Source of the DNA: a phage | Assembly (NCBI GenBank): GCA_010671865.1 | Contig: GCA_010671865.1_4083.1 | Reading direction: 5' to 3' (one strand) | DNA length: 64,000 nucleotides | Part shown: piece after piece, positions 367 to 25,552 of the stretch | Position numbering within the stretch: the first letter of the stretch is position 1 | Layout of the letters: each line of letters opens with the position of its first letter | Program-made: the position numbers and the translations under genes | The notes under the pieces: model-generated | What the model was told of the DNA's origin: nothing | Seen by the model: only the letters and a program-made list of their open reading frames with translations | Database searches by the model: none

Positions 367-948
367 TTAATCCATCATAAGTGGGATAATTGCCCATATC
401 TTTTTCATAATCATATCTTCAGTAAAAACAAATGTTTTAGGAGCAGTATATGATATTGACACACCAAATGGAAGTTTGATTGCATCATCAATTATATTAT
501 GAATATCAAACCATGTTTTAACATAATCATACGGTGGAAGTTCATGAATTGTACTTAACTGAAAGTAATTCTCTTCACCAAAATCACTATATTCAATTTC
601 ACAAATTTTAGTGAATTGATGATTCCATTTAGATATAATACTATTTTTATTATTGTACATAGTAGTTCTATGCATAAAACCATTTTTGCTAGTATGATTT
701 GATATTACGTTTTCTTCAATGTCAGTATCTATTTTAAAATTCATATCAAAGTTGTAGTACGGACTTGACGATTCTTTGAATTTTAAATGTAAATTGCGAT
801 TGTTATTAATTTCAATTTCAATACAAAACACATCTGAATCAAAACGATTAAACTTGTAATCGTTATCTTCCGGTAGATTCTGTATTTTTTTCATAATACT
901 AAGCATAGGGTGTACTACACTTTTAATAAAATCATTTGTTATTTTCAT
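367..948 (-). CDS. hypothetical protein, FQ-motif superfamily
   Basis: 193-aa ORF; motif ENYFQLSTIHE. Confidence 0.6.
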   Translation of the reverse strand: MKITNDFIKSVVHPMLSIMKKIQNLPEDNDYKFNRFDSDVFCIEIEINNNRNLHLKFKESSSPYYNFDMNFKIDTDIEENVISNHTSKNGFMHRTTMYNNKNSIISKWNHQFTKICEIEYSDFGEENYFQLSTIHELPPYDYVKTWFDIHNIIDDAIKLPFGVSISYTAPKTFVFTEDMIMKKIWAIIPLMMD

Positions 949-1441
949 AGTATTCCTTTAGAACTTTATATGATTCAACAATACTATCTTGTGTATAATT
1001 TGAACTATATACAACAGCACTTGTTTTAGTTGACCATAGATATGACATAAAGGTTATAACACTACTACATGGACTTAATGTATTGTTTTGAAATTCAATT
1101 TCTTCAATGTTATCAGTACTGGTATAGATGAATTGGAAAGTACCCATTGATTTATTGGACAGCGATACTATAGTAGAATCCGTACCAGGACTATACATGA
1201 ATGTCTCATTACTAATTGAACTATCATTAGTATATGATGGTTTGGGAATATAAATCAAACGCATGATATCGCGTTCAAGACCTGACTTATTACTTTCCAC
1301 CAAAGAAATCATATCTATATTTGATATATGTTCAACACTGACATGGAACTTTTTGTCGAGAATCACATCTCCATGAGAATTTTTATATGAAGACAAAATC
1401 TCATACATCTCAACTAATTCGCGTGCATTTAATAAACTCAT
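932..1441 (-). CDS. hypothetical protein (MSL-type N-terminus)
   Basis: 169-aa ORF; N-term MSLLNARELVEMYEIL resembles MSLQSALEKAK subfamily; motif degenerate. Confidence 0.55.
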   Translation of the reverse strand: MSLLNARELVEMYEILSSYKNSHGDVILDKKFHVSVEHISNIDMISLVESNKSGLERDIMRLIYIPKPSYTNDSSISNETFMYSPGTDSTIVSLSNKSMGTFQFIYTSTDNIEEIEFQNNTLSPCSSVITFMSYLWSTKTSAVVYSSNYTQDSIVESYKVLKEYYENNK

Positions 1442-1866
1442 GTTTTGTCTCTTAATGAAAGAATATCCTTAGTATAAACTGAAACAGAAATATGATTATA
1501 TTTCATCATTAATTTATACACATAAGAAGCTAGTACTAAATCGTAAATTAATTTAGTATTATACAGTACTTGGTATTGTAACGCAAGTGAATCAATATCA
1601 TCTTTACTTTCAATATCCAGAAATGTACCGAAAAATGTAGTACCGTAGAGATGAAAAGTGGAATTAATGCAATCAATGCATTCATTGTCCAATAGAGTAG
1701 ATGCTGATGCCCTCGGTGAATCCCAAATAGTCACTGCGTGTATGCCCTCAACGAACAAATCTATCCATATTTTGTGTCGTTGTCTTTTTTTTGTTTTATA
1801 ATTTTCTGGATTTGAAAGTGTAGTTTCAATTATATCCCATATGTACAAACAATCATCTCTTGTCAT
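1438..1866 (-). CDS. hypothetical protein
   Basis: 142-aa ORF, 4-nt overlap with neighbours; degenerate motif LALQYQVLYN. Confidence 0.5.
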   Translation of the reverse strand: MTRDDCLYIWDIIETTLSNPENYKTKKRQRHKIWIDLFVEGIHAVTIWDSPRASASTLLDNECIDCINSTFHLYGTTFFGTFLDIESKDDIDSLALQYQVLYNTKLIYDLVLASYVYKLMMKYNHISVSVYTKDILSLRDKT

Positions 1867-2444
1867 TGTAGCACCTTATCCATTGCTGCATTTAATGCGT
1901 TTAAACGATCAACATTCAAAGTATTGAAGATGTACGTTCCTAAAATGTGGAAATCGAATTGGTTCTTTTTGTATGTATGATAAATTAAACTACAAAAAAC
2001 AACAGTACTAAGAACCTCTTCAGGTATAACAGTGCTCATCTGGAACAGTTCTTCTTCAACTGTACTTGAATCTGGATTGATAGCTTTTAACACATACTCT
2101 TCATCACCGAATAGTACTTTAATATTATATAAAACACCAATAGTACTAATATGGAATGGGTGATGTGAAAAACTTCCATCATCCTTAATTTGTATATCGG
2201 TTCTAATCTCACACTCTTCATTACTTTTACTTTTATTTTTTACAATACAAATATTTCTGGCCCCAGAAATAGTAAGAATACCGTGGTCGTAATATTCATT
2301 TGACCAACATTTGGATGAAATTGATACATCACGGATGAGATATTGTTTTTCAATTTCTTTCGCACTACCAACAATTGATAGCATTTTTTTACTGATATCA
2401 TATAATAACTGATGGCGTTCTGTCATATAACTATAAGCGTTCAT
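1863..2444 (-). CDS. hypothetical protein, FQ-motif superfamily
   Basis: 193-aa ORF; motif EEELFQMSTVIP. Confidence 0.6.
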   Translation of the reverse strand: MNAYSYMTERHQLLYDISKKMLSIVGSAKEIEKQYLIRDVSISSKCWSNEYYDHGILTISGARNICIVKNKSKSNEECEIRTDIQIKDDGSFSHHPFHISTIGVLYNIKVLFGDEEYVLKAINPDSSTVEEELFQMSTVIPEEVLSTVVFCSLIYHTYKKNQFDFHILGTYIFNTLNVDRLNALNAAMDKVLQ

Positions 2445-3015
2445 ATTTTTCCTTAACAGATTCTATATTTTGAAGTAGTGTATTCAGAACATCAGTCTTG
2501 CAATTGATAAAATCATTGTACATAACTAGTTCACCACAATCAAGAATTTTTGCAGTATCGTAACAAAGCATTAAGTACTCGAATTCTTTGTAATTGTCCA
2601 ACAAGGATTTCTGGAAAATGAATGCATCTCGAATATCTTCACTTTGGTCTAATTCTGGTGGAACATCCAACCCAATAAAACCATCATCTTCACTGAAATT
2701 AGATTCTACAATTTTATTCATTTTTTCATGTAATGCATTCGCAAATACCATATTATAAGAAATAGAACCAATACGTTCACGATTTCTGGATGTGCGAATG
2801 TACATAGTAATCGTATCCCATGAACTTTTAATTTTTTTAGAAAATTCATAAGTTTTATATACATCCAACTGAACTGAACCAAAACGATGTTTGGATTTGT
2901 TTTCAATTTTCAGTCGATAATTATCAAATTCAACAATTTCTGTAATGTCATGAATCTCTGAAAGTTCTGCAATGTCATGCATGAGTCTCAAAATTTTAGT
3001 TCTGATATGGTTCAT
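2431..3015 (-). CDS. hypothetical protein, FQ-motif superfamily
   Basis: 194-aa ORF; motif DAFIFQKSLLD. Confidence 0.6.
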   Translation of the reverse strand: MNHIRTKILRLMHDIAELSEIHDITEIVEFDNYRLKIENKSKHRFGSVQLDVYKTYEFSKKIKSSWDTITMYIRTSRNRERIGSISYNMVFANALHEKMNKIVESNFSEDDGFIGLDVPPELDQSEDIRDAFIFQKSLLDNYKEFEYLMLCYDTAKILDCGELVMYNDFINCKTDVLNTLLQNIESVKEKYERL

Positions 3016-3590
3016 TGTGCATCCTCGAATTTAACAGGTACATGTTCATTAATGAAATTCTTAAGAGCCTGTACTAAATCCTCTAATTCTTTTGTACTGT
3101 ATTTTAAAATAGTTTTAAAGTGAATCAAATCTTTTCTTTCCATGATCTTTGGAATTTTATATGCTAACTCTAAACAGCGTACAGTACTGGCATCATACAA
3201 AAGGTTTGCGTTGAACATTAGAACATTGTATTCATCAGATGAAATTTTATAATTATATGTATCAATCACTTCATGTGTGTATAAATTCTTATACACAATT
3301 TTATTCTCACTGAAGTTTGAGCAAACACACAGATGATCGTTGTAAAATGAAGAACGATAATCTTGTTTACGTTGTACATCTGATATGATTTGTAATACTG
3401 TATATTTTTCTTCAGAATCCAACTCAATGTTAGCATAACTGCTTGCAGTTTCGGATGCAAGGATATTGATGTTATATTTCTCATTGACTTTAATGTACTG
3501 GCGGGAACCAGTATCAGGAATGAACTTAAAACAATGCTTCAGAAGTAATGTGACTTCTTTAATTAATTCAGTACTCATAGATTCCTCCAA
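3012..3590 (-). CDS. hypothetical protein
   Basis: 192-aa ORF in array; no clear family motif. Confidence 0.5.
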   Translation of the reverse strand: MEESMSTELIKEVTLLLKHCFKFIPDTGSRQYIKVNEKYNINILASETASSYANIELDSEEKYTVLQIISDVQRKQDYRSSFYNDHLCVCSNFSENKIVYKNLYTHEVIDTYNYKISSDEYNVLMFNANLLYDASTVRCLELAYKIPKIMERKDLIHFKTILKYSTKELEDLVQALKNFINEHVPVKFEDAQ

Positions 3591-3634: not shown

Positions 3635-3667
3635 GCCATAAACACAAAAAGACCCATACGGGTCTTT
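3635..3667 (-). terminator. intrinsic terminator-like hairpin
   Basis: AAAGACCC-gtat-GGGTCTTT stem-loop overlapping stop of 3666..4232, followed on minus strand by U-rich run; approximate. Confidence 0.45.
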
Positions 3668-4232
3668 ATTTTGGTAAAACACTGTCAATGTACGCTAGAA
3701 CCTCATCTCGAAGGTACGTTCCATCTATAGTTAGGTAATAGTTCATGGGAATATCACTCCCAACCTTCTCATAAATTTTCATACATGATATCACATCTTC
3801 ATCACAAATGGTACTCAATTGAAAAAGAACTTCATCGGTTAACGGTACGATATCATGTTTAGATAGGGGATTTGTATTTTCATTCAACACAATATTAATC
3901 AAGTTAGGAGTATTCTTTGACGAAATATAACGATGCTTACTACGAATTACCATTCTCGATAGTGAAATACTGGAACTCCATCTTGGATCAACATCTTCAT
4001 ATGATAACGATATTAACATCTCGTGAAAATCTTGAAATTTCATTGACGCATAATATGTTTTATCCTCACCGTACATACCAAATGATTTAAATTCAATATC
4101 CCCTACTTTGTATGTATCGACATCATTATTTGAGAACTTTATTAAACTATTAATTAGTCTAATTAGAATATCATCTTTATCCATTCTTAAATAACTCCAA
4201 GTGCATGTCGTATAAATCTCTGAAGTCTTCAT
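3666..4232 (-). CDS. hypothetical protein, FQ-motif superfamily
   Basis: 188-aa ORF; motif EVLFQLSTICD; probable true start at internal Met near 4184 (GGAG RBS). Confidence 0.55.
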   Translation of the reverse strand: MKTSEIYTTCTWSYLRMDKDDILIRLINSLIKFSNNDVDTYKVGDIEFKSFGMYGEDKTYYASMKFQDFHEMLISLSYEDVDPRWSSSISLSRMVIRSKHRYISSKNTPNLINIVLNENTNPLSKHDIVPLTDEVLFQLSTICDEDVISCMKIYEKVGSDIPMNYYLTIDGTYLRDEVLAYIDSVLPK

Positions 4233-4740
4233 AGAAATCTTTTTCTTCCAGAATATCCTTTAAACTAGGAAACACTGCCATAATTTCTTCTATATCCGAT
4301 TCTATGAAAAACCCTGATGGATTATCGTAGTTTTGTAACAGATAACTGAAAGTAATAATGTAAAGAAGTTCATTAGGATTGTGAATTAAACTTAGCTGGA
4401 ACATAGCTGATTCTAAATCTGATTCAGTACTAAGATCAACCCAACGTGAATTTCTATAATCAATTCGCACTTGACTTGTATTTGGATTCCATGTGAAGCA
4501 ATGTGTACCAATATGACCTATACAACCAACCCTTGTACTGTCTCCGGTATCAACACTGATATCAACAAATAGTTCAATACCGATATCGGTTGATGTTACA
4601 CGACCTTTTTTCAGAAATAAATCATTATCCTTACGAAATTGTTTGGATGAAAGAGTGTCAATGATGCACATCAATGTTTTTGCAAATGCAACACAATGAC
4701 GAAATTCAAGCCTATGAAATTGGTAATCATTGATATTCAT
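4177..4740 (-). CDS. hypothetical protein, FQ-motif superfamily
   Basis: 187-aa ORF; motif ESAMFQLSLIHNP. Confidence 0.6.
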   Translation of the reverse strand: MNINDYQFHRLEFRHCVAFAKTLMCIIDTLSSKQFRKDNDLFLKKGRVTSTDIGIELFVDISVDTGDSTRVGCIGHIGTHCFTWNPNTSQVRIDYRNSRWVDLSTESDLESAMFQLSLIHNPNELLYIITFSYLLQNYDNPSGFFIESDIEEIMAVFPSLKDILEEKDFYEDFRDLYDMHLELFKNG

Positions 4741-5279
4741 AATTCAACCCTCAATATTTTATCAGCAATTGATATAACCTTATCATTGAATACATTACCA
4801 ATCTCAATCCTTATATACATAGCAGGTGGAATCTTTCCTTGTAGTGAATAATATGTTTGTATACCTAAGTACTCATTATCTGATAATGAAAATTTGATTC
4901 TCTCCATATCAATGTCTGTTACTGGTAAATCTATCATTTCATAATGGTAGTCAACGTTTTCAGTGTATATTTTATCGAAGTAATTTGAATAATCACTACT
5001 AATGTAGATGCTATCATCACGAATAATTACTTTATAATCAGAAGGTTCAAATTTATCTTTACAGGAAAAGAATGCATCATCTATTTTCTCTTCTCTTATA
5101 CCGAATAACATTTTACCATCATATTTTACATCAAGAATACTACCTAGTATATTAATGGTACAATGCTCATCAATATTATGATGTAATGAACGTTTTTTGT
5201 ATTTTGGGTTAATGAAAATTTTCATTAATTTTATACAAATGTCAGTAATGCATTTTACATTCTCATTTTCTATGTACAT
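4737..5279 (-). CDS. hypothetical protein
   Basis: 180-aa ORF, ATGA-type overlap with neighbours; no clear motif. Confidence 0.5.
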   Translation of the reverse strand: MYIENENVKCITDICIKLMKIFINPKYKKRSLHHNIDEHCTINILGSILDVKYDGKMLFGIREEKIDDAFFSCKDKFEPSDYKVIIRDDSIYISSDYSNYFDKIYTENVDYHYEMIDLPVTDIDMERIKFSLSDNEYLGIQTYYSLQGKIPPAMYIRIEIGNVFNDKVISIADKILRVEL

Positions 5280-5766
5280 TAAAAGCCCTCTTTAATTCTT
5301 TTACATTTTTAATGAATACTTTCATTGCAGAAATCTCAAAAGATAATGTATTAAATTTGCAGTACTTTTTAAAGTACGACATAATATATAACATTTTGAG
5401 TTCTTTTTCTGTATAAATTAAACTGTTTTGAAAGTAACTTTCTTCGGAAATGTCCGTAAGAAAAGAATAAAATGTATTTTGCTTGTGCACAATTTTAATA
5501 CTATCAGACCAAGATTTGTATGAAACGTAATCAGTACGTGCAAAATCATATAGTGAATTAGATGTATCTGTGTATGTTTCCGAGAACACAATCTTATATA
5601 TCTTATCTTGAATTCGAGAACATATGTACCTATGGTCATCTGTCTCACTGATTGCAATGTATCTATGGAGTAAATCTTTATGAGCATTGATGAACTCAAA
5701 CACTTCTAAACACTCCTTAGCGAACTTCATAGTTTCTCTGTACTTTCGGTTCATTAGTCTCTCCAA
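5263..5766 (-). CDS. hypothetical protein, FQ-motif superfamily
   Basis: 167-aa ORF; motif EESYFQNSLIYT. Confidence 0.6.
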   Translation of the reverse strand: MERLMNRKYRETMKFAKECLEVFEFINAHKDLLHRYIAISETDDHRYICSRIQDKIYKIVFSETYTDTSNSLYDFARTDYVSYKSWSDSIKIVHKQNTFYSFLTDISEESYFQNSLIYTEKELKMLYIMSYFKKYCKFNTLSFEISAMKVFIKNVKELKRAFNVHRK

Positions 5767-6167
5767 ACTTTACCAGGGAAGTGTTTCTCGTAGTACTCAT
5801 CATCACTTAACATATAATCAGGAGTTTCTACTTCTATGGTTTTGAAGATTGTTTCTGGAATGTGTGTGACTTTATTGGGTTGTACTTTATGTTCGCGTAA
5901 AACCTTCTGTATCGCTCCTAGACGTTGTAAATCGATACATGTAGGAAAGACTAAGCTGTACTGAAATAACTCATCAGGGGTCATTATAGACACATCTTTA
6001 GCTTGTTTGATTTGATAATTAGTACTAATGAATATATCAAATCCTTGTACAGCATTATAGCTTACATAGGTTGTTTTATTTTTGTCAATAGGAGCACTTA
6101 AACGATATCCATATATCCCGTGTTGGTCAACAAGACAGCGTTGCATAATTTTAATCATTTCTAACAT
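5754..6167 (-). CDS. hypothetical protein, FQ-motif superfamily
   Basis: 137-aa ORF; motif DELFQYSLVFP. Confidence 0.6.
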   Translation of the reverse strand: MLEMIKIMQRCLVDQHGIYGYRLSAPIDKNKTTYVSYNAVQGFDIFISTNYQIKQAKDVSIMTPDELFQYSLVFPTCIDLQRLGAIQKVLREHKVQPNKVTHIPETIFKTIEVETPDYMLSDDEYYEKHFPGKVWRD

Positions 6168-6513
6168 AATTTACCTCATATGTATTGTAACACCACGGTT
6201 TAACAATATCGATTTGTATATCATTTGCTTCATGAAAATGTTTAAGTACCTTCTGGTATTCCATTATTTCGTACACATCTTCAGTACTTATAGTGCTCTC
6301 CTGAAATAATTCCTCTTCTGATAAAGTACTATAATCAGGGATTTTTATTTCTGAATATATATCATTTATCTTTCCATTATATTGATAAATCTGGATATAA
6401 AATTGATTGTATTCTGGAATATAGGTTACATAATGGTTGTGGTTGATTACATATCTTGAAACAAAGTATTCAGTACCATCAGTCATGTACTGAATTGTTG
6501 TCGTATTTTGCAT
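6151..6513 (-). CDS. hypothetical protein, FQ-motif superfamily
   Basis: 120-aa ORF; motif EEELFQESTIST. Confidence 0.6.
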   Translation of the reverse strand: MQNTTTIQYMTDGTEYFVSRYVINHNHYVTYIPEYNQFYIQIYQYNGKINDIYSEIKIPDYSTLSEEELFQESTISTEDVYEIMEYQKVLKHFHEANDIQIDIVKPWCYNTYEVNYVRND

Positions 6514-6973
6514 TCAAATAATCCACGCATTTATAGTATACTGCTAAATCTAAAAAGAATCGTTGTTTGTATTTGTAATGATGAAGTAGTGCACCATAAA
6601 ATAACATAGCATTAAGTACTTTTGTATCATTAATCAATGATTTCTGAAAGTACATTTCCTCTGACATGAATACTAAATCATTATATGGAACTTGTACTGC
6701 TTCTCTAAATGTATCAATATTAATCTTCAAATCAGACCCAGGGCAATATGAAATGTATTCTGCTTTGTAATGAAAGTCATTATCATCAAAGTACTCCGCG
6801 TAGATTTGATTACCTCTACCATTAGTAAATGCTAGTCTTCCTTTAGATGAACTGAACTCATCGTATTGAAACATACCACCAAAAGGTTTAGGACTTCTGA
6901 ACTCCTTTGCAATGCGATAGATATTTTCTGCAAATTCTAAAACACCATCGTAATCATATTCTGTAGTAATCAT
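6479..6973 (-). CDS. hypothetical protein, FQ-motif superfamily
   Basis: 164-aa ORF; motif EEMYFQKSLIND. Confidence 0.6.
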   Translation of the reverse strand: MITTEYDYDGVLEFAENIYRIAKEFRSPKPFGGMFQYDEFSSSKGRLAFTNGRGNQIYAEYFDDNDFHYKAEYISYCPGSDLKINIDTFREAVQVPYNDLVFMSEEMYFQKSLINDTKVLNAMLFYGALLHHYKYKQRFFLDLAVYYKCVDYLNAKYDNNSVHD

Positions 6974-7446
6974 AAACCATTTTTCTCCAGGTACTCAATA
7001 ATACAATCGACATTGTTCAGGTCCAAGTAGAAATGATCACTATCGGAATTTAGTTCATTTTTAAGGGCTGTTAAAATCACTGAACTGAAAACAATCCTCT
7101 CTGGATACACAGTACTGTACTGGAAGAACTCTTCTTCAGTGTTAATTACAATCGTATCAAATGCTTCATTTATAAGAAGATGATTGTAGTATTTGAAATT
7201 ATCTGAACTTGGGAAATGGTATGAAATAAAATCACCACTTGGTACTTCATCAAGCACTCTAATACTACAAGTTGATTCATCTGAGCTATAGAGTAACCCA
7301 TCCATAAAGGAAAGATATCCATTTCGTTTAATAACTTTATTTTTATCAATTAAAAAATCTTCAGTAACATTCGCAAGGAATTTATAAACCCTGATAATGT
7401 CTTTTGCTATTTTTTGTGCATTGCTAAATGATAGGTCTTTGGACAT
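6970..7446 (-). CDS. hypothetical protein, FQ-motif superfamily
   Basis: 158-aa ORF; motif EEEFFQYSTVYP; N-term MSKDLSFSNAQKIAKDIIRVYKF. Confidence 0.6.
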   Translation of the reverse strand: MSKDLSFSNAQKIAKDIIRVYKFLANVTEDFLIDKNKVIKRNGYLSFMDGLLYSSDESTCSIRVLDEVPSGDFISYHFPSSDNFKYYNHLLINEAFDTIVINTEEEFFQYSTVYPERIVFSSVILTALKNELNSDSDHFYLDLNNVDCIIEYLEKNGL

Positions 7447-7505
7447 TGTGTTATAACCCTTTACAATTAATATAAAGGGATTATATCACAAAAAATCGGT
7501 GGGTG

Positions 7506-8090
7506 TCAAGAGTGGTTGCGAAGTTCTACCATTTCTTCCCAAACTAATTGGTAATCTTCTAAGTCCAGATAGAAGTCTTCATTCCAGTGCTCATGAAAGT
7601 ACTTATACATGAATAGAACTCCTAAATCGTATGCAGGAAACAATAATGATAGTTGAAAGTAGTATTCCTGATTTAAAACTATATCAATAAACTCTAATGT
7701 ACGTATGCCACCTTTCGATGAACGTATCTCAATGTGTGAGGTATCCTTCATACTGTAACACATGAAACCACCTCTAAATTCTGGATCATATTCACATTCG
7801 AACTGCTCACTGTTGTTATAGAAATCTCTCCCACTTTCTTGATCTTTCGGTCTACGTACTGATACATGAATATTTTTATCACGGTACATTGAACGATTTA
7901 GTATTTTCAAACATTTGAACTTATCTTCTTTAATGAACTTGATAATATCAATTATATCTTGTGCTGTACTGATAGCTGATTCGAATGTATCCAACTTAAG
8001 ATGATTATATTGGGTTCCAGAGTTCATTTTTTTATCTAACATATAAACCTCATAATTCATACATTTTTGATTTGAACTGCATATGACCAC
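7506..8090 (-). CDS. hypothetical protein, FQ-motif superfamily
   Basis: 194-aa ORF; motif QEYYFQLSLLFP; likely true start at internal Met near 8042. Confidence 0.55.
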   Translation of the reverse strand: MVICSSNQKCMNYEVYMLDKKMNSGTQYNHLKLDTFESAISTAQDIIDIIKFIKEDKFKCLKILNRSMYRDKNIHVSVRRPKDQESGRDFYNNSEQFECEYDPEFRGGFMCYSMKDTSHIEIRSSKGGIRTLEFIDIVLNQEYYFQLSLLFPAYDLGVLFMYKYFHEHWNEDFYLDLEDYQLVWEEMVELRNHS

Positions 8091-8391
8091 CTATTTCACA
8101 TGGATAACAATTCATAATTTTGTTCAATAGAATCTGGTATTTTTTAATAACTTCTATATCAATTTTTATATTACTATTAAAAACTAATGATTCTTGAAAT
8201 AATTCCCCCTCGTCAAGTGAAGTAAAATCATTTATCTTCAAGGGTATATTGTTGCATCGCAAGGAGAATGTATTTTCATCACGAATTAAAGTATAGAAAT
8301 CATTATGTTTTTTATTATAATCAAATTTAACAAGTAGTAGTTTAATATGAGTAGCGTACATTACTTTAACTAATTCAGATTCACGTCGCAT
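8050..8391 (-). CDS. hypothetical protein, FQ-motif superfamily
   Basis: 113-aa ORF; motif EGELFQESLVFN. Confidence 0.6.
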   Translation of the reverse strand: MRRESELVKVMYATHIKLLLVKFDYNKKHNDFYTLIRDENTFSLRCNNIPLKINDFTSLDEGELFQESLVFNSNIKIDIEVIKKYQILLNKIMNCYPCEIGGHMQFKSKMYEL

Positions 8392-16158: not shown

Positions 16159-16355
16159 CTTAATCTCTACTATAATTAATAAGGTAAACTCCAATATAAG
16201 GAGAACGTTCGGCGGCGGGGTATTTTTTGTTTCAAGAAACATGAACTGTACTCTGAAAAACACAATATAAAACTTTATATTAAACATATACCTTAGCATG
16301 TTTTTCAGCGGAAATTTTTTTGACCCCCCCTGCGGCCTGTCAAAATGAAACGTCT

Positions 16356-17495: not shown

Positions 17496-17505
17496 TGTAC
17501 TTTCC

Positions 17506-17850
17506 TTACATATTTGTACCGAACAAAACGGAACTTTGAATGCCATTAATCGACACTTCATGTACATATATATTTTGTCTGAACAAAGGAACTAATTGAA
17601 CTAAACTCGTTTGCATAATAATATGCATATGTACATTGTCATATGCCGTTTCGTATTGGAATCGTGCAGCTTCATCTTCTATGAAATTCGGAACTTGGAC
17701 TGGATTCTCAAAATTTGTCCTTGTACTGAACTGTACATCATTGTCCTGTACCTTAATACCATATGAATTATCATTGTTATCAACTACATCAAATTCAATT
17801 AAACTACCATCTTTACTGACGTTTACTATATAAACCGAAAATCGACTCAT
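17506..17850 (-). CDS. hypothetical protein, FQ-motif superfamily (divergent)
   Basis: 114-aa ORF; motif DEAARFQYETAYD. Confidence 0.55.
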   Translation of the reverse strand: MSRFSVYIVNVSKDGSLIEFDVVDNNDNSYGIKVQDNDVQFSTRTNFENPVQVPNFIEDEAARFQYETAYDNVHMHIIMQTSLVQLVPLFRQNIYVHEVSINGIQSSVLFGTNM

Positions 17851-18362
17851 AAACCTATTTCCTCTAAATCTTTGACAAATGTATCATAATCCGATAATGA
17901 CAAAAATATGTCTGTACTGATGTTTTGACGTAATGTATTAAACAAATTATGTACCTGTAATAAATCAGGTGCATAAATCAGGGATTGCTGGAAATACGAT
18001 TCTTCTGTATCTAATATATCCCTGCACTCAATTTCACGAACTCGTTGGTATATTGAATTTAATAATACATTTTCATCTTTGAGCATTGGAAGGTATCGGA
18101 TGTACATGTTCTCCATCAACTCATCTTGGATTGAACCCCTGAACTGCAACACGTATTCAAAACACATCACTACATCTTGTAGGTAATTGGCACTGTACTG
18201 ATTACTATACACGATTTTATGACAACTGAACTCGGAATCATTTCTGAACCAATTGTTACCCTCTTTCCTGTACTTATGACTAAGCTTCCCATCCTCCAAC
18301 GCTCGAATGAACTTCATAATGTTAATTGCAAAATCATATGAATGATGCTTGTGTTGATGCAT
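17847..18362 (-). CDS. hypothetical protein, FQ-motif superfamily
   Basis: 171-aa ORF; motif EESYFQQSLIYA. Confidence 0.6.
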   Translation of the reverse strand: MHQHKHHSYDFAINIMKFIRALEDGKLSHKYRKEGNNWFRNDSEFSCHKIVYSNQYSANYLQDVVMCFEYVLQFRGSIQDELMENMYIRYLPMLKDENVLLNSIYQRVREIECRDILDTEESYFQQSLIYAPDLLQVHNLFNTLRQNISTDIFLSLSDYDTFVKDLEEIGL

Positions 18363-18566: not shown

Positions 18567-19190
18567 CTATATATCCAACCCTTTTACAACATCTACGAAA
18601 TGTTCAAACACTTCTTTTGAAAAATAACCACCTTCACAAAAAAGCATACTAAACGGTGGCAGCATGTCCGATAACTCTTTAGCTAAATTGATTTCTGCTC
18701 TTAACTCTTGAACATCAATGATATCATGTACTAAAGATAATTGAAACATGAATGCATCTACATCTTCATTCATTTCTGAATTGTAATATAACTCTTCAGG
18801 GAATTTGTCGGTTTCGTAATAATAAAAAACTTTATTGTTGAACACACCACTAATAGGAACATCATTTTCATCTTTCTTTGAAATGTTTGTTTCCCATGAC
18901 TCTATATTATTAGGAACAAAAAAATCATAGGCTGATTTTGAACCCTGTACTGAATCCAACTTTATTCCATAATATTCCGTATCCATGTATTTCTGCTGTA
19001 ATGTAATACCACGTGTACTGACATTCACTTGGAATATATCATCTTTATCTGGAACACTAAATGGAATACATAACACTGAATTCTCAGGGTATTTGGCAAT
19101 GAATGCATCCAGCACTTTATTAAGCACTGGAATGGCAATTTTACTGTACTGCATCAAATCATACATTTTAATTCTGGTCATATCATTCAC
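18567..19190 (-). CDS. hypothetical protein, FQ-motif superfamily
   Basis: 207-aa ORF; motif DAFMFQLSLVHD. Confidence 0.6.
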   Translation of the reverse strand: MNDMTRIKMYDLMQYSKIAIPVLNKVLDAFIAKYPENSVLCIPFSVPDKDDIFQVNVSTRGITLQQKYMDTEYYGIKLDSVQGSKSAYDFFVPNNIESWETNISKKDENDVPISGVFNNKVFYYYETDKFPEELYYNSEMNEDVDAFMFQLSLVHDIIDVQELRAEINLAKELSDMLPPFSMLFCEGGYFSKEVFEHFVDVVKGLDI

Positions 19191-19710
19191 CTGTGTATGT
19201 TTTCACCCTTAGCGATTCAAAATCCCATACATCACTGATTGTACCATTGTGCCTGTAATCATAATATTCTACTAATACATTATACAATAACTTCAACGAT
19301 ACAAATTCATGATTCCACGGAGCTTTATTCTCATGAACACATTTGGTGATATAAGGTATAATATATAAACTAAACAACACTAATGGTGAATGTATACATT
19401 GCATTTGAAAATATTCTTCTTCTTGCATACAATGTTCAGGAATAATTAGATCATAATGTGTCTCAAATAAATGTAAACCTATTGTGGTTTTTTTCGTATC
19501 ACATGCGTACCATATTGTACTATCCGAAATAAATGGAATGATACCATTATTGTTTGCAATGTACATCATATGGTAAGAGCGATTTGTCTTGTTAAATATC
19601 TCGATACTTTCGATATTACTACAAATCATGTATTCAAGACAATCAATGATCTTATCTTTAAATGCACCAATTTCATTGAATGTCATTGATTTCTGCACGT
19701 CACTGCTCAT
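19183..19710 (-). CDS. hypothetical protein, FQ-motif superfamily
   Basis: 175-aa ORF; motif EEEYFQMQCIHS. Confidence 0.6.
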   Translation of the reverse strand: MSSDVQKSMTFNEIGAFKDKIIDCLEYMICSNIESIEIFNKTNRSYHMMYIANNNGIIPFISDSTIWYACDTKKTTIGLHLFETHYDLIIPEHCMQEEEYFQMQCIHSPLVLFSLYIIPYITKCVHENKAPWNHEFVSLKLLYNVLVEYYDYRHNGTISDVWDFESLRVKTYTGE

Positions 19711-20219
19711 ATGTTCTCCTTAAAAAAATTCAAATACTCTTCATTGAAAGCATATGTATCATCTTTTTTGTTATGCACCACATAATCATAAAGAGCTATG
19801 AATGCAGGGATTATGATCTTACATGATTTATTATTGTATTTGTACTGCTCCAAATCAACGGTATTCAATTTAGCAATAAGCATAGCAACAAAGATATCTT
19901 CATGGCGGTGTACTGTACTGTACTGAAAATATTCATCCTCTCCAATATCAGGATGATATAACGGTATATCCAAATTATTACGAATTGACATTTTATATTT
20001 TTGTAATGCAGCTAAATGCATGAACCACAATCTATCTTCATTGAAATATGGAAAAATAATTTGGTCTGTGCTAACAAAAATTTCCTCATTTTTATCGTAT
20101 TCCACAAGAGGTGCATACATTTTATTTTTTGCAGATCTAATAATTAAATTAAAAATATAATGAATCTTATGAACTGCACTTGATGCATCTTCGTATGTAC
20201 TTGGGATTATGAAACTCAC
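19707..20219 (-). CDS. hypothetical protein, FQ-motif superfamily
   Basis: track ORF 19707..20381 trimmed to in-frame GTG preceded by AAAGGAGAA RBS (alternative starts possible); motif EDEYFQYSTVHR. Confidence 0.45.
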   Translation of the reverse strand: MSFIIPSTYEDASSAVHKIHYIFNLIIRSAKNKMYAPLVEYDKNEEIFVSTDQIIFPYFNEDRLWFMHLAALQKYKMSIRNNLDIPLYHPDIGEDEYFQYSTVHRHEDIFVAMLIAKLNTVDLEQYKYNNKSCKIIIPAFIALYDYVVHNKKDDTYAFNEEYLNFFKENI

Positions 20220-20301
20220 TATATGTTCTCCTTTAAAATGATTACACATGATAACAGCTTTGCACTTCTTTGTCAATACCAAAACGAAAAAAGCCCATAT
20301 C

Positions 20302-20808
20302 TTACGATACAGGCGTGCTGGGCATGTTGATTTGAATTTCATTGTACAAATCATCAATATATAGACATGAAAAAAACACACTATCTTGTACTATATTGTT
20401 GTGATAAAGCATTTTAAATACTACATAAAAAAATAAATCAATATCATCGTGGACTAAATTCTGCTGGAACCACCACTCGTCTGTTAAATCTTGTGCATTA
20501 AAATCATCAGGAACTTCAATGAACGACATATCACAATCTTCTTTGTACTCAAACCACATGTCGTCATTCGGATAACGTTCATGCTTCTCTGGGTAACAAT
20601 TGCTGGGATTAAATGTTAAAATATTAAACCCCGTAGAGCAACGTTCTTTATTTAAAAATGTATTATTCCATACCTGATATTTTTCACCAACATCAAGCTC
20701 TTCTGTTACTGATTTTATTGCACATAATGTACTGTATATTGTTTCTATCTTGTGAACATATTTAAATGCAGCATCTAAGCTGAACTCTAAATCATACATG
20801 TACTGCAT
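20302..20808 (-). CDS. hypothetical protein, FQ-motif superfamily
   Basis: 168-aa ORF; motif DEWWFQQNLVHD. Confidence 0.6.
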   Translation of the reverse strand: MQYMYDLEFSLDAAFKYVHKIETIYSTLCAIKSVTEELDVGEKYQVWNNTFLNKERCSTGFNILTFNPSNCYPEKHERYPNDDMWFEYKEDCDMSFIEVPDDFNAQDLTDEWWFQQNLVHDDIDLFFYVVFKMLYHNNIVQDSVFFSCLYIDDLYNEIQINMPSTPVS

Positions 20809-21128
20809 AAAATTACCTCAACTAAAGCAAGAACTGTATTAAATTCAACTATACTTGTAATTCCTTGAAGGTACATGTACTTTGCTACTACATATTTCTG
20901 TACTAAATTATAATTATTAAATTCCTCAAAATTGTAATTTAGAACAAAATCTGTACTCAAAAATATCTTATGCATCTCTAATGCACTTTGATAATACGCG
21001 TACAACTCACGGATATCAATACTGGTTAAATTATATTGTTCATATCTATGATACGGGATGGCTTCAATTTCAATACTATAAAACCATTCTCTTAACTTAT
21101 TAATATCAAATGTATTATTCAGCTTCAT
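20787..21128 (-). CDS. hypothetical protein
   Basis: 113-aa ORF; no clear motif. Confidence 0.5.
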   Translation of the reverse strand: MKLNNTFDINKLREWFYSIEIEAIPYHRYEQYNLTSIDIRELYAYYQSALEMHKIFLSTDFVLNYNFEEFNNYNLVQKYVVAKYMYLQGITSIVEFNTVLALVEVILCSTCMI

Positions 21129-21681
21129 AACTCAATACCTCCATTAAACACTCATACACACCATCAATCGCATAAGCACAAAAATTGAAATTAATTTTGT
21201 GATTCTTGTGTAATGGACTATTGTGTACTGTACTCATTATGACATTATAAAATAACAAACGCACTGGTACAAGCATTGAACCTTGGAAAAATTCTTCCTC
21301 TGATTTATATGTATTGTACTCTATTGTTTTGTTCGTTTCTTTATCATATGTTACCATTACTAATGGGGAATTTTTATTATACCATGCGTACTCTAAATCA
21401 TTCTTTCCAATAACAGCACCAGGTGCGAAATCCAAAAGACCAATAACACTACGGGCATTTGGTATATCTGGTGTATTGAATCGTTTATCAAAATGACTCG
21501 TGCACGCAATATATGTATTGTACTTCGATGGAATAATACCAATACATTTGTGGAAATGACGCTTGTGATATTTCTGGGCATTATATAAGGATGCAACAAT
21601 ACAAGCTAACTTTTGTCCCATAAGGATTGCATTAGCGTAGGTGTACTGAATTTCATTGCTGGTACGGTACTTCGAGGTCAT
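21115..21681 (-). CDS. hypothetical protein, FQ-motif superfamily
   Basis: 188-aa ORF; motif EEEFFQGSMLVP. Confidence 0.6.
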   Translation of the reverse strand: MTSKYRTSNEIQYTYANAILMGQKLACIVASLYNAQKYHKRHFHKCIGIIPSKYNTYIACTSHFDKRFNTPDIPNARSVIGLLDFAPGAVIGKNDLEYAWYNKNSPLVMVTYDKETNKTIEYNTYKSEEEFFQGSMLVPVRLLFYNVIMSTVHNSPLHKNHKINFNFCAYAIDGVYECLMEVLSYEAE

Positions 21682-21964
21682 AATATTTCCTTTGCCATAT
21701 CATGGGCTTAAAATCAATAACAGCTTTCTGTATCTTTTTTAATAATAAGACATCATAACCACCCGTGTCAATCACTAATTGCTGTTGGAACAATTCTTCA
21801 TCGGATAATGTATTGAAATCTACAAAATAATCTGTAACTATCGAATCATTTAAATGTGCCATGTACCAACCTGAACTTCTTGAATAAATCAAATTCCACC
21901 CATCGTCATCATCTTCTAATTCAACATAAATCATATCTGGGGTATACATCATTTTATACTTCAT
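21653..21964 (-). CDS. hypothetical protein, FQ-motif superfamily
   Basis: 103-aa ORF; motif DEELFQQQLVID. Confidence 0.6.
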   Translation of the reverse strand: MKYKMMYTPDMIYVELEDDDDGWNLIYSRSSGWYMAHLNDSIVTDYFVDFNTLSDEELFQQQLVIDTGGYDVLLLKKIQKAVIDFKPMIWQRKYYDLEVPYQQ

Positions 21965-22460
21965 AACTATATCCTTGCATCAAAATATCATAAACGTTTG
22001 AAAGGTACGGAATTTTGATATAAAATTTAAAACCCTTAATTAAAGGATTCGCGTACAATGAACTGAATAACTTTAGATAATGTATTTGACGAGGACTGTA
22101 TAATAACGATTTCTGAAATAATTCAGAACTACAATCTGAACTAATATCAATTAAATCAATTCGTGCTTCTACTTCATCATTTTGTTTCAAATCATAAAAG
22201 AAATAATCGTTTGTGTTGACCCACAAATACCCTTCACTATTTTCGTATATAACAGGAGATGCTTGTTCTGGATTGCCTTGGGCAAATGCTGCAAAACAAA
22301 CTTTTGCATTACTTTCATCTTTAAACAAAAACGATAATTTATCATATCTATCTTCTATGCGTAAATCACCTATATAAATGTACTTATGCATAGAATGATT
22401 ATTCTTGAGCATAAGCATTACTGTACTAATCTTGTGTGCTAATAATTCTATCTCATTCAT
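21954..22460 (-). CDS. hypothetical protein, FQ-motif superfamily (tandem duplicate pair, copy 1)
   Basis: 168-aa ORF; N-term MNEIELLAHKIST, C-term PLIKGFKFYI...LMQGYSYEV; motif SSELFQKSLLYS. Confidence 0.65.
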   Translation of the reverse strand: MNEIELLAHKISTVMLMLKNNHSMHKYIYIGDLRIEDRYDKLSFLFKDESNAKVCFAAFAQGNPEQASPVIYENSEGYLWVNTNDYFFYDLKQNDEVEARIDLIDISSDCSSELFQKSLLYSPRQIHYLKLFSSLYANPLIKGFKFYIKIPYLSNVYDILMQGYSYEV

Positions 22461-22497: not shown

Positions 22498-22542
22498 TCA
22501 ACATAAATCATATCTTGGGGTATACAACATTTTATACTTCAT
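22498..22542 (-). pseudogene. frameshifted duplicate of the 5' end of gene 21653..21964
   Basis: 22463-22542 duplicates 21895-21964 with a 1-nt insertion; reads MKYKMLYTPRYDLC-stop; approximate. Confidence 0.5.
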
Positions 22543-23080
22543 AACTATATCCTTGCATTAATAAATCATAAACTACATGGACTAAATTTAATTGAATATA
22601 AAATTTTAAACCTTTAATTAATGGATTCAAATGCATTGTACTGAATAACATTAGATACATCATCTCATGCGGTTTTGTGATTAATGATTTTTGAAATACT
22701 TCAGCTTCATCATAAGGGTCTATGAACTGAAATTTGTCTTCATCATAATTTGTATTGGAATGCTGATATATAAAATAATCATCATTGGTATTGTACCACA
22801 AATATCCTTCGAATCCTGTACTAACATCTTTGGTCAATGGGGATGCTGATACTGGATTTGAACTGATTAATGCACCTACATCAACAATCCCCGTTGTATC
22901 ATATTCGATTTCAACATCAATATCAATGTATTTCCTTGCGATATCTGCGTTTATGGACAAATATAAACTACCACCTGTCCTCTGACTCAGGATTCCATCT
23001 ATATGCGATATAGGATGGTTGTTATTGAGGATAAGCATTATTGTACTTATCTTGTGTGCTAATAACTCTATCTCATTCAT
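22532..23080 (-). CDS. hypothetical protein, FQ-motif superfamily (tandem duplicate pair, copy 2)
   Basis: 182-aa ORF; N-term MNEIELLAHKIST, C-term PLIKGLKFYI...LMQGYSYEV; motif EAEVFQKSLITK. Confidence 0.65.
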   Translation of the reverse strand: MNEIELLAHKISTIMLILNNNHPISHIDGILSQRTGGSLYLSINADIARKYIDIDVEIEYDTTGIVDVGALISSNPVSASPLTKDVSTGFEGYLWYNTNDDYFIYQHSNTNYDEDKFQFIDPYDEAEVFQKSLITKPHEMMYLMLFSTMHLNPLIKGLKFYIQLNLVHVVYDLLMQGYSYEV

Positions 23081-24053: not shown

Positions 24054-24241
24054 ACTATCTCCGTTCGCAACGAATTTATATAATAATGAACAAATTGTTC
24101 TTGTGAACGTGTTCCAAGAAAAATAAACATATCAAACTCTGTTGTTTTTAAATTCAATGCATCTTTTGTAAAACTCCTGTTGAATTCCCTGTACTTTTGG
24201 GTCTTCCATTCTTGATTAATTGTCTTGTATATCGATTTCAA
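24023..24241 (-). CDS. hypothetical small protein, family B
   Basis: 72-aa ORF; motif LGTRSQEQF. Confidence 0.55.
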   Translation of the reverse strand: MKSIYKTINQEWKTQKYREFNRSFTKDALNLKTTEFDMFIFLGTRSQEQFVHYYINSLRTEIVCKTQGIIKR

Positions 24242-24542
24242 TGATTCTCCCTGATGTACCTTGTATTAGCTTATCATACATATCGAGCATCACTTTTTGA
24301 ATACTAATTAGTACTGGCATCGTGCAAATATCAATGTCGTATATTAAGCTGTACTGGAATAATTCATCTTCCTGCATTTGTACTAAATTAGGTAAAGGAT
24401 AATTGTCTGCCTCTTCATCCTGGTACTTGAAATGCATAACACCATCCTTTTTGTACAAAAGAATGTCAATATCACCTAACTCTTCTGCATAACCAAAAAT
24501 ACATATACTCGATGTTTTTGCTATATTAAATTTCATCTCCAC
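24216..24542 (-). CDS. hypothetical protein, FQ-motif superfamily
   Basis: 108-aa ORF; motif EDELFQYSLIYD. Confidence 0.6.
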   Translation of the reverse strand: MEMKFNIAKTSSICIFGYAEELGDIDILLYKKDGVMHFKYQDEEADNYPLPNLVQMQEDELFQYSLIYDIDICTMPVLISIQKVMLDMYDKLIQGTSGRIIEIDIQDN

Positions 24543-24778
24543 CTCTCTCCGTCAGCACAAGAGTACTGGTACGTTGTCGTTAGGGTAGGGACCATGTTTG
24601 TAATGGGCATGTTGTTAACAATAACCGTAACAGGCATAAGAATCGTCTCTTCTCTACTCTGTCCTGTCCTTGTGCAATTCATCTTCTGCATTTCATCTGA
24701 ATCCATGAAATACAATACAAATGGTGCAATCCCAAGAACAATACACAAAACGATAAGGAAATTTAAAAAATTTAACAT
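24533..24778 (-). CDS. hypothetical small membrane protein
   Basis: 81-aa ORF; N-terminal hydrophobic helix FLNFLIVLCIVLGIAPFVLYF. Confidence 0.45.
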   Translation of the reverse strand: MLNFLNFLIVLCIVLGIAPFVLYFMDSDEMQKMNCTRTGQSREETILMPVTVIVNNMPITNMVPTLTTTYQYSCADGERWR

Positions 24779-24837
24779 AATTTTTACCCTATGATTAACG
24801 TTAGTGTACTATATCAGTAATGAAAAGTACTGTCAAG

Positions 24838-25242
24838 CTAGTATTGCACTGTTCTAATGAAAGTACCTGAACTCATGGATTTAAGCTTATGAACCTCTTC
24901 CTGCATACCCTTGATTAACCCTAAAGGTATAGGTACATCATGTACTAAGCTGTACTGAAAGTATTCTTCTTCAGATAAAGTACTAACATCTGGAACGCCA
25001 ATTTTAGTTATATAATCTTGATGTGTTGACCAATAAATTATATCTTCAGTAGAATTGTACTCCCCATATACTGAACAATATTGATGAATATCTTTCCTGT
25101 ACCCTTGAGCAATAAAGAACTTATCTACTGCATTACCAGCATTAATAGAATTCACTTCGATTGTCACAGTACTTGAGCTTGTATAACTCTTAGTATTATC
25201 AGTACTTTTAATACTCAACTGTGTGTTCTTCATAATCACCAT
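24838..25242 (-). CDS. hypothetical protein, FQ-motif superfamily
   Basis: 134-aa ORF; motif EEEYFQYSLVHD. Confidence 0.6.
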   Translation of the reverse strand: MVIMKNTQLSIKSTDNTKSYTSSSTVTIEVNSINAGNAVDKFFIAQGYRKDIHQYCSVYGEYNSTEDIIYWSTHQDYITKIGVPDVSTLSEEEYFQYSLVHDVPIPLGLIKGMQEEVHKLKSMSSGTFIRTVQY

Positions 25243-25552
25243 TAGGCTCCTGTTTAGATTCTTTCATTAGTACTATCATCTTATGTACTAATGGCATAGG
25301 AAACTCTAAATCCCATACTAATGATTCCTGAAAGTATTCCTCTGGTGATAAAGTACTTAAATCTTTAATATCAACGTGCTTGTATATTTTATTTTCGTAA
25401 TTAACAAATGATATATATAAATCACTAACATAAGAATCATAGGTAATTGTGAATGGCTTACCCTTGTAATCCATTACATCTCTACATAGACTACTTTTGA
25501 TATATGTATGTTCAAATGATTTATATACCTTGAGTTGTATATTAGTTTTCAT
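25208..25552 (-). CDS. hypothetical protein, FQ-motif superfamily
   Basis: 114-aa ORF; motif PEEYFQESLVWD. Confidence 0.6.
   Translation of the reverse strand: MKTNIQLKVYKSFEHTYIKSSLCRDVMDYKGKPFTITYDSYVSDLYISFVNYENKIYKHVDIKDLSTLSPEEYFQESLVWDLEFPMPLVHKMIVLMKESKQEPNGDYEEHTVEY

Follow-up and report, generated by a model that had tools for sequence, protein, structure and literature searches.

The window analysed here, 64,000 nucleotides of phage DNA (NCBI GenBank assembly GCA_010671865.1, contig GCA_010671865.1_4083.1), contains between positions 367 and 25552 an array of minus-strand genes whose products share a mid-protein motif centred on the residue pair Phe-Gln (hereafter the FQ motif and FQ family). 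The array comprises about 45 tandem paralogs of one family that appears to be restricted to the RaK2-like lineage and that is carried here by an Asteriusvirus jumbo coliphage. Its products are small, mostly acidic and soluble and are not virion components at detectable levels, and their common scaffold may present different surfaces to different host components, either for host takeover or for counter-defence. We give an even chance to the reading as a whole, in which one scaffold underlies an ancient set of acidic, non-structural proteins that are made early and interact with the host; the early timing and the binding of host targets are the parts of it that we infer.

The FQ motif defines a family of about 45 paralogs

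The pattern FQx[SN][TL][VILT] is matched 33 times in the three minus-strand reading frames, always within 564-25333; the plus-strand frames contain a single match and the remainder of the 64 kb none, and about one match would be expected by chance over six frames according to a rough estimate from residue frequencies. A hidden Markov model (HMM) iterated from the motif-bearing seed open reading frames (ORFs) converges on 40 ORFs at E<1e-3. In 367-25552 there are 49 non-nested minus-strand ORFs that reach 100 amino acids or more, of which 40 are these firm members; they cover 19.1 of the 25.2 kb (76% of the interval) and have intact reading frames in all 40 cases (Table 1). A broader HMM, built from 190 sequences (the 40 window members and metagenome relatives) and giving noise from an E-value of about 0.6, adds four borderline members (3012-3590, 17506-17850, 10611-11147 and 1438-1866), which together with 4737-5279 and 9105-9641 bring the further ORFs with a degenerate motif to six. 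With 40 firm and four to seven degenerate members, the figure of about 45 given in the original prediction, which was made from the sequence alone, is a fair count. That prediction also placed an extra copy of the motif at 53862-54521, where a resemblance is indeed present (EEDLFMYSTVID) and is weak, with Gln changed to Met (HMM E=0.13, hhalign probability 19%). The peptides that it quoted occur in the translations, except EELFQESLVFD, which is a blend of several members.

Outside the motif the proteins are as strongly diverged as had been claimed: the mean column identity of the 40-sequence alignment is 13%, and Phe and Gln are its sole invariant columns. In the 190-sequence alignment Phe is found in 190/190 sequences, Gln in 189/190, Ser in 170/190 and the two Glu residues in 153 and 148, respectively, while aromatic columns beyond the motif are also conserved family-wide. 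The extended consensus is [LM]-[ST]-E-E-x-[YLF]-F-Q-x-S-[LT]-[VIL]-[YHFW]-[DN]. Among the members the motif Ser is encoded by AGT (16), AGC (5), TCA (7), TCC (2) and TCG (2), Phe by TTT (21) and TTC (19), and Gln by CAG (25) and CAA (15). Since synonymous codons are mixed at the motif positions, selection acts on the peptide, in agreement with the earlier proposal. Conservation at the DNA level, such as that of a recombination site, is ruled out by this codon diversity.

N-terminus-to-motif distances fall into two modes, at about 67 and about 110 residues, by which a short and a long type of member can be distinguished. The residue at position -1 (Leu versus Tyr) and that at position +6 (Trp/Phe versus Tyr/His) co-vary with the type, whereas the E, E, F, Q and S of the motif do not. 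The products of the members range from 100 to 205 amino acids and are acidic, with a median isoelectric point of 5.0 and a median net charge of -9. Their charge goes down to -26, yet four members are basic, and in a comparison with DNA-mimicking anti-restriction proteins no fold match to Ocr or ArdA was obtained. Hydrophobic segments are confined to the over-extended N-termini of two ORFs, and a membrane-protein reading was rejected.

Predicted structure of the FQ proteins

One long and one short member were modelled by AlphaFold2, with the 40 paralogs jointly as the alignment. The model of the long member 12209-12661 (predicted local distance difference test, pLDDT, 83.6; predicted template modelling score, pTM, 0.77) consists of an N-terminal helix, seven beta-strands, a short helix, the motif helix (residues 103-109), a long helix (115-129) and a strand, while that of the short member 14896-15252 (pLDDT 84.6, pTM 0.79) consists of five strands, the motif helix (65-75), a further helix (83-99) and a closing strand. 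The motif is the highest-confidence part of the protein in both models (pLDDT 94-97), and in the long model the 10-residue blocks of the motif helix have mean pLDDT values of 94-97. Each member is thus predicted to fold into a two-layer alpha/beta domain with an antiparallel beta-meander, the motif helix, a second long helix and a closing beta-strand, to which the long members would add about 40 N-terminal residues including a helix. A Foldseek search of BFVD with the long model matched only uncharacterised proteins of 121Q, SP27, RaK2, GAP32 and Serratia BF, including a 124-amino-acid RaK2 protein at a template modelling score of 0.71. Because the BFVD models were computed independently, these matches lend independent support to a fold shared by the long and short types. 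Judged from the models, the fold of the family is not seen in solved structures. The layout of an antiparallel sheet that bears helices on one face recurs in other known systems, several of which serve as platforms for binding proteins or peptides.

Within this fold the motif may form the keystone helix, with a Ser/Thr cap, the two Glu residues in the first turn, the aromatic or aliphatic residue and the Phe packed on the sheet, the small Ser allowing close packing and the Asp/Asn capping the next helix. The hydrophobic motif positions are read as packing against type-specific parts of the same protein and the polar ones as helix caps and a small packing residue. In the short subfamily (14896-15252 and 13 others), a second near-invariant Gln is found about 20 residues past FQ in the second helix (consensus I-Q-x-x-M-K), and this residue could contact the motif helix.

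The original prediction had likened the motif, in form, to linear docking or processing peptides and had named the core of a small conserved fold as an equal possibility. The latter is the better supported, that is, a motif that is part of the fold and not a free linear peptide: it is predicted as a high-confidence helix in both models, and its hydrophobic positions co-vary with the architecture. The motif is by these predictions an ordered element of a common fold, while no characterised domain in Pfam, NCBIfam or the PDB sequences matches the family.

The same models bear on two specific peptide readings. The sequence E-E-x-[YF]-F-Q resembles the E-x-x-Y-x-Q of the tobacco etch virus (TEV) protease site at P6, P3 and P1, with a relaxed form in 25/40 members, so F-Q might be a processing site for a 3C/NIa-type or phage maturation protease. 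We consider this highly unlikely. The spacing of Glu, aromatic residue, Phe and Gln that the motif shares with the TEV site ENLYFQ-[GS] is superficial, as the strict form E-x-x-Y-x-Q-[GS], with Gly or Ser at P1', is found in only 1/40 and 6/190 sequences; both models predict a highly ordered helix for the motif instead of an exposed extended segment; none of the proteins is found in the virion proteome, where maturation cleavage would act; and the annotation of about 130 kb of related genomes, which were not scanned in whole, includes ClpP-like and prohead proteases but no 3C-like protease. Even less credible is that Q-x-S-L-V-F is a motif for binding the beta-sliding clamp. The pattern FQx[SD]Lx[FLYW] fits 12/40 members, and the anchor positions Gln1, Leu4 and Phe6 of the hexapeptide class QLxLx[LF] match the FQ motif. 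This likeness in the spacing of Gln, Leu and Phe is also superficial, given that QL[SD]LF occurs in 0/40 and 0/190 sequences and QLxLx[LF] in 1/40, and that position 4 is Thr in 15/40. Clamp-binding peptides are terminal or disordered and are bound in extended form, whereas the FQ motif lies mid-protein and is predicted to be ordered.

Spread of the family and its standing in databases

A profile search of 1.84 billion representative proteins, of the kind that the original prediction had proposed, revealed only 156 clusters at E<=1e-3. All of them are 65-210 amino acids long, which indicates that the domain is never fused to other domains. FQ is found in the expected context in 149 of the 150 clusters listed, and for 109 of these 150 the identity to every window member is below 50%. 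Where the source is named, it is an Asteriusvirus phage or an Escherichia coli assembly that carries one, or belongs to the Salmonella SD-type phages or the Klebsiella RaK2/K64-1-type phages; the rest are metagenome contigs. The divergent representative P0122, when used as the query, matched no sequence but its own, which lies on a contig of 1.3 kb.

For instance, phAPEC6 has 42 family members, three of them left of the window edge, which span gp404c-gp466c. Klebsiella phage RaK2 has 29 HMM matches and at least five further FQ ORFs, and downstream of its array are the dam, cytidylyltransferase, RnlA and PseT genes that also follow the array of phAPEC6. The presence of a comparable array in RaK2 indicates that the array is older than the divergence of the Escherichia phage genus from the Klebsiella one. 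A 41-kb metagenome contig (L005; 28% GC) carries about 30 copies in 18 kb, mostly less than 50% identical to window members.

No Pfam-A family was matched at E<=0.01 by the 10 members searched, and at E<=10 all 40 members gave scattered single matches, with no family matched by more than one member. An NCBIfam scan had the same outcome, with no family model matched, and a profile search of the PDB sequences with the family gave nothing at E<=10. PHROGs v4 splits the members into more than 20 families, all of "unknown function" (phrog_9317, 12674, 13866, 15629, 19795, 28680, 31297, 34636, 22855, 34600 and others), where each member matches its own PHROG with E-values from 1e-55 to 1e-144 and some weak cross-matches occur. 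The PHROGs entries are the same proteins, but the unifying FQ helix is not recorded in them. In the open literature we found genome notes, the structural proteome of phAPEC6, the mapping of the fEgEco12 ends and one remark on tandem arrays, and no description of the motif. The FQ superfamily is undescribed as a family and lacks a recognisable fold relative, while amplified families of accessory genes are, as a kind, known from large viruses.

Genome context, promoters and absence from the virion

Bases 11000-19000 of the window are 98.9% identical to Escherichia phage vB_EcoM_G17 and 94-99% identical to 121Q, PBECO4-type phages, phAPEC6 and slurp01 (genus Asteriusvirus, with genomes of about 350-385 kb), and by this nucleotide identity the window is assigned to an Asteriusvirus (121Q/PBECO4/G17-like) jumbo coliphage. 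The counterpart of bases 32000-50000 is the left-end region of Asteriusvirus genomes, which in vB_Ec-M-J is annotated with "Direct Terminal Repeats". The genome ends of fEgEco12 have been mapped by PhageTerm and restriction digests, and its left-end terminal repeat is 20,993 bp long. From the left end of fEgEco12, this repeat is followed by about 28 genes for proteins of about 65-85 amino acids and then by the FQ array at 27.3-56.3 kb, in which 43 family members (27,270-56,262) all read inward from the left end and which starts 6 kb inward from the mapped repeat. The gene order in the window is the same but runs right to left, and the array continues for about 4 kb past the left edge of the window, with three more weak members in phAPEC6.

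Near-consensus sigma-70 promoters, defined by at least 11 of 12 matches and expected at 2.9 +/- 1.5 per strand, number 26 on the gene (minus) strand of the whole window and six on the other strand. Nineteen of them lie on the minus strand at 33-53 kb, in the equivalent of the terminal repeat of about 21 kb, where they are mostly TTGACA-16-TATAAT (12/12) and each precedes a small ORF by 30-57 nt. Three others occupy the rare intergenic gaps of the array (at 24836, 20276 and 7509), and the array is divided into transcription units by a terminator-promoter pair at 20.3 kb, to which an annotated terminator of UE-S1 corresponds in position. The array is positioned just inside a direct terminal repeat of about 21 kb, downstream of and co-oriented with a dense block of host-type promoters. 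This position and co-orientation make its early transcription by host RNA polymerase likely.

In the virion proteome of phAPEC6 determined by electrospray ionization tandem mass spectrometry (ESI-MS/MS), the table has no entry between gp347 and gp549, an interval that spans the family gp404c-gp466c, although low-abundance proteins could escape detection. The family products are not virion components at detectable levels, and a virion-protein reading was rejected. As no family member is present in this proteome, there is also no sign of head-maturation processing.

The GC skew changes from negative to positive near 52 kb (within about 50000-56000), and the gene orientation changes from minus to plus by about 56 kb. 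This flip is close to the left physical genome end expected if the terminal repeat is about 21 kb long. The GC content is 29-34% in the two paralog arrays (window 1-32000) and 36-42% in the region equivalent to the terminal repeat (32000-52000).

Evolution of the array

UE-S1, which is about 90% identical in nucleotide sequence, has syntenic orthologs of 35 of the 40 members in conserved order, and four members are without one. The pooled ratio of nonsynonymous to synonymous substitution rates (dN/dS) for all aligned pairs is 0.33, and that within the motif is 0.19. Recent tandem duplicates form three groups only (12209-14530, 14540-16299 and 21954-23080), while for the other members the best paralog scores at most 35 bits, which essentially reflects the motif. 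The UE-S1 gene UES1_321 (L003 17878-18606) is one ORF of 242 amino acids in which two short members (14896-15252 and 15781-16299) are fused; the member between the counterparts of the fused pair, 15252-15623, is absent from UE-S1. These sequence comparisons portray the array as an old set of individually maintained genes under moderate purifying selection, neither churning rapidly nor decaying.

They also bear on whether most of the array is duplicated DNA of no function, or selfish DNA, kept because a jumbo phage with headful packaging can afford extra sequence. Such a view would accord with the proposal that jumbo genomes grew by tandem duplication (Hua et al., 2017), with the few copies gained, lost or fused between genomes and with the several degenerate motifs. 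We regard it as very unlikely in the face of the dN/dS of 0.33, the intact frames of all 40 members, the conserved order at about 90% nucleotide identity, the ancient age of most duplicates, and the fact that RaK2 and a divergent metagenome phage have kept both array and FQ pair.

Possible functions of the FQ proteins

Several points weigh against the host-interaction reading given at the outset, or against parts of it. The array contains only six strong promoters, the argument for early timing leans on position and on the analogy with T5, T7 and SPO1, and we found no transcriptome, interaction data or functional study in the Asteriusvirus literature. For the common scaffold, hhalign aligns the short and long subfamilies over 19 motif columns only (E=6.9e-6), so that the case for a common origin of the entire domain comes from the models and the class-conserved aromatic columns. 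The two AlphaFold2 models, for which the joint alignment was used, are not independent of each other; they disagree over S-[TL]-[VIL]-aromatic, which is helical in one and extended in the other; and the beta region of the long model is predicted with moderate confidence (pLDDT 52-81). In addition, Phe-Gln is absolutely invariant, beyond the normal demand of packing, whereas neighbouring core positions vary within their residue class.

The FQ proteins may alternatively be a family of adaptors, in which the invariant E-E-x-x-F-Q-x-S helix docks on a shared hub and the variable beta-sheet part recruits differing substrates. The hub could be encoded by the phage or be a host machine, for example a protease/unfoldase, RNA polymerase or the ribosome, and the ClpP-like protease encoded by the phage genus (phAPEC6 gp353c) is a conceivable candidate. 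We rate this, the main rival, as an unlikely alternative that nevertheless deserves serious attention: Phe (190/190) and Gln (189/190), along with the near-invariant Glu, Glu and Ser, are conserved independently of subfamily while all else has diverged, and the short and long subfamilies are alignable over the motif alone. Nonetheless, the two positions that should face solvent by helical-wheel reasoning (x at -2 and +2) are the variable ones, residues of a folded core can be invariant too, and no member is fused to, or consistently located beside, a gene for a candidate hub. More doubtful is the specific form of this idea in which the helix is a plug that docks about 45 early proteins on one hub, as a combinatorial adaptor system that retargets the machine to dozens of substrates; in phages, such a system would correspond to what the F-box/PRANC/BC-box adaptor families are in eukaryotic viruses.

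The conserved polar residues (Glu-Glu, Gln and Ser) might instead form a ligand-binding or catalytic site, with the paralogs acting as enzymes or as sponges for small molecules or nucleotide signals. The conservation of four polar residues across 190 sequences would be consistent with such a site, and small phage "sponge" proteins of similar size exist; we still find it improbable.

Neighbouring genes and features of the array

The members and elements are listed in Table 1. Directly behind the promoter 24836-24808 and inside the FQ array, the ORF 24533-24778 (-) encodes 81 amino acids with a strongly hydrophobic N-terminus (MLNFLNFLIVLCIVLGIAPFVLYFM), and is likely, from its sequence, a small membrane protein and not an FQ family member.

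A second paralog family, of about 70-95 amino acids and with the motif [LFM]-G-T-x-x-Q-[ED] (FLGTNYQE, LLGTDRQEEY), occupies 25542-32000 (-). This LGT family is also found at 10415-10636, 23787-24053 and 24023-24241, and one member tested matches phrog_4148, of unknown function. LGT-like ORFs accompany the FQ array in the metagenome contig L005 as well, and the LGT motif, like FQ, centres on a Gln. At 56639-63916 (+) are six tandem paralogs of about 380-430 amino acids that start with MLPF[AGV]RM[VIM][KMN]Y[GA]NI[VA]P, and Pfam recognises RCC1-like repeats (RCC1, WD40_RLD) in the paralog that was searched, 56639-57832. Judging by their size and position, the six are probably the virion "DNA condensation proteins" of phAPEC6 (about 30-42 kDa; gp003-gp010, gp549 and gp551).

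The promoter-rich region includes a weakly protein-kinase-like ORF at 35756-36397 (-), whose match to Pfam Pkinase (E about 1e-3) falls below threshold and which carries a Ser/Thr kinase annotation in fEgEco12 and Turkey3, and a DksA/TraR C4 zinc-finger protein at 40402-40659 (-) (E=7e-12); both are plausible early host-modulating genes. In phAPEC6 the ClpP-like protease subunit gp353c (L002 18745-19440) is encoded about 30 kb from the array, with two Ser/Thr phosphatases and a Sir2-like protein nearby.

Table 1. Firm, borderline and doubtful members of the FQ family in the window, with the promoters and the terminator-like element of the array
Feature	Position	Strand	Motif or sequence	Evidence or remark
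Member, long	367..948	-	EENYFQLSTIH	HMM E=6e-23
Member, long	932..1441	-	EEIEFQNNTLS	HMM, motif
Member, long	1863..2444	-	EEELFQMSTVI	HMM, motif
Member, long	2431..3015	-	DAFIFQKSLLD	HMM, motif
Member, long	3666..4232	-	DEVLFQLSTIC	HMM, motif
Member, long	4177..4740	-	ESAMFQLSLIH	HMM, motif
Member, long	5263..5766	-	EESYFQNSLIY	HMM, motif
Member, short	5754..6167	-	PDELFQYSLVF	HMM, motif
Member, short	6151..6513	-	EEELFQESTIS	HMM, motif
Member, long	6479..6973	-	EEMYFQKSLIN	HMM, motif
Member, long	6970..7446	-	EEEFFQYSTVY	HMM, motif
Member, long	7506..8090	-	QEYYFQLSLLF	HMM, motif; likely start near 8042
Member, short	8050..8391	-	EGELFQESLVF	HMM, motif
Member, short	8370..8813	-	EEEMFQYSTVF	HMM, motif; likely start near 8747
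Member, short	8737..9099	-	EDELFQESLVW	HMM, motif
Member, long	9696..10256	-	EENIFQNSVLH	added at HMM iteration, motif
Member, long	11144..11593	-	EEGYFQGSTVY	HMM, motif; sole strict TEV-consensus match
Member, short	11898..12212	-	ESFIFQESLVW	HMM, motif
Member, long	12209..12661	-	EEYYFQNSTVY	HMM, motif; AlphaFold2-modelled
Member, long	12639..13127	-	EEYYFQNSTLY	HMM, motif; recent tandem cluster
Member, long	13127..13570	-	EEYYFQQSLIF	HMM, motif; recent tandem cluster
Member, long	13567..14037	-	EEYYFQQNTIY	HMM, motif; recent tandem cluster
Member, long	14039..14530	-	EEYYFQQSTVY	HMM, motif; recent tandem cluster
Member, short	14540..14899	-	DGELFQEALVF	HMM, motif
Member, short	14896..15252	-	TAELFQESLVF	HMM, motif; AlphaFold2-modelled
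Member, short	15252..15623	-	EEEFFQESTVW	HMM, motif; no UE-S1 ortholog
Member, short	15781..16299	-	DAALFQAALVF	HMM, motif; likely start near 16158
Member, long	16953..17567	-	DESLFQYSTMY	HMM, motif; likely start near 17495
Member, long	17847..18362	-	EESYFQQSLIY	HMM, motif
Member, long	18567..19190	-	DAFMFQLSLVH	HMM, motif
Member, long	19183..19710	-	EEEYFQMQCIH	HMM, motif
Member, long	19707..20381	-	EDEYFQYSTVH	HMM, motif; true start downstream of promoter 20276-20248
Member, long	20302..20808	-	DEWWFQQNLVH	HMM, motif
Member, long	21115..21681	-	EEEFFQGSMLV	HMM, motif; no UE-S1 ortholog
Member, short	21653..21964	-	DEELFQQQLVI	HMM, motif
Member, long	21954..22460	-	SSELFQKSLLY	HMM, motif; recent pair
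Member, long	22532..23080	-	EAEVFQKSLIT	HMM, motif; recent pair
Member, short	24216..24542	-	EDELFQYSLIY	HMM, motif
Member, short	24838..25242	-	EEEYFQYSLVH	HMM, motif
Member, short	25208..25552	-	PEEYFQESLVW	HMM, motif
Borderline/degenerate member	1438..1866	-	LALQYQVLYN (Phe to Leu, Ser to Gln)	broad HMM E=0.012
Borderline/degenerate member	3012..3590	-	LMFNANLLYD (Gln to Asn)	broad HMM E=0.0023; hhalign weak, E=0.21
Possible degenerate member	4737..5279	-	ERIKFSLSDNEY, KFSLSD (Gln to Ser)	by eye from translation; array-typical size and position; no HMM match
Possible degenerate member	9105..9641	-	DEDAMFTNDIT (Gln to Thr)	by eye from translation; no HMM match
Borderline member, FQ kept	10611..11147	-	DEQCFQLSCTD	broad HMM E=0.0045
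Borderline member, FQ kept	17506..17850	-	EAARFQYETAYD	broad HMM E=0.0031
Doubtful outlier beyond array	53862..54521	-	SEEDLFMYSTVID (Gln to Met)	HMM E=0.13; hhalign 24 motif columns, E=1.2e-3, probability 19%; own PHROG
Sigma-70-like promoter	24808..24836	-	TTGACA-17-TATAGT with TG	in 60-nt gap upstream of ORF 24533-24778
Sigma-70-like promoter	20248..20276	-	TTGACA-17-TATCAT with TG	directly past terminator
Intrinsic-terminator-like hairpin and T-run	20293..20314	-		at stop codon of member 20302-20808
Perfect sigma-70 consensus	7480..7509	-	TTGACA-18-TATAAT with TG	34 nt upstream of member 6970-7446

Significance and comparison with known systems

Asteriusvirus, Alcyoneusvirus and the other RaK2-like jumbo phages are being considered for therapy, although over 80% of the genes they carry are without an assigned function. 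The FQ family accounts for about 8% of the genome (about 29 kb and 43 genes in fEgEco12) and is conserved across E. coli and Klebsiella phages, yet it is invisible as a unit in Pfam and PHROGs. With one superfamily, a confidently predicted fold and a likely early context, about 45 "hypothetical proteins" per genome become one tractable question. Should these proteins serve in host takeover or counter-defence, no larger paralogous set of phage effectors would be known to us, and if the FQ helix docks on a common hub, the mechanism would be new for phages.

Hua et al. (2017, mBio, PMC5646251) proposed that jumbo genomes have grown by tandem duplication and pointed to 121Q and phage G, in which over 30 similar genes form arrays, a remark repeated in a 2026 review (PMC13282480). 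Those arrays concern the same phage group and the same idea of genome growth as the FQ array, but no motif, fold or function was described for them. As most FQ members are dissimilar (best paralog at most 35 bits), Hua et al. may have meant another array, such as the LGT family of about 80 amino acids or the RCC1-like genes.

In its location beside or inside a long direct terminal repeat, the FQ array resembles the pre-early region of T5 (in the terminal repeat), the class I genes of T7 and the host-takeover module of SPO1 (in the terminal redundancy). The likeness, which is one of analogy, extends to arrays of small ORFs that read inward behind strong host-type promoters. The modules of T5, T7 and SPO1 consist of unrelated single-copy genes, whereas the FQ array consists of 40-plus paralogs.

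In the latter respect, the array resembles the terminal multigene families of eukaryotic viruses, with dozens of diverged paralogs near a genome end that are non-structural and vary in copy number between strains. The MGF360/505 families of African swine fever virus (ASFV) and the poxvirus Bcl-2-like, ankyrin/PRANC and BTB-kelch families are factors of host range and immune evasion. As in these families, one fold or short motif may have been kept in the FQ array while the surfaces diverged. The host is bacterial and there is no relationship in sequence or fold, so the analogy is one of organisation only.

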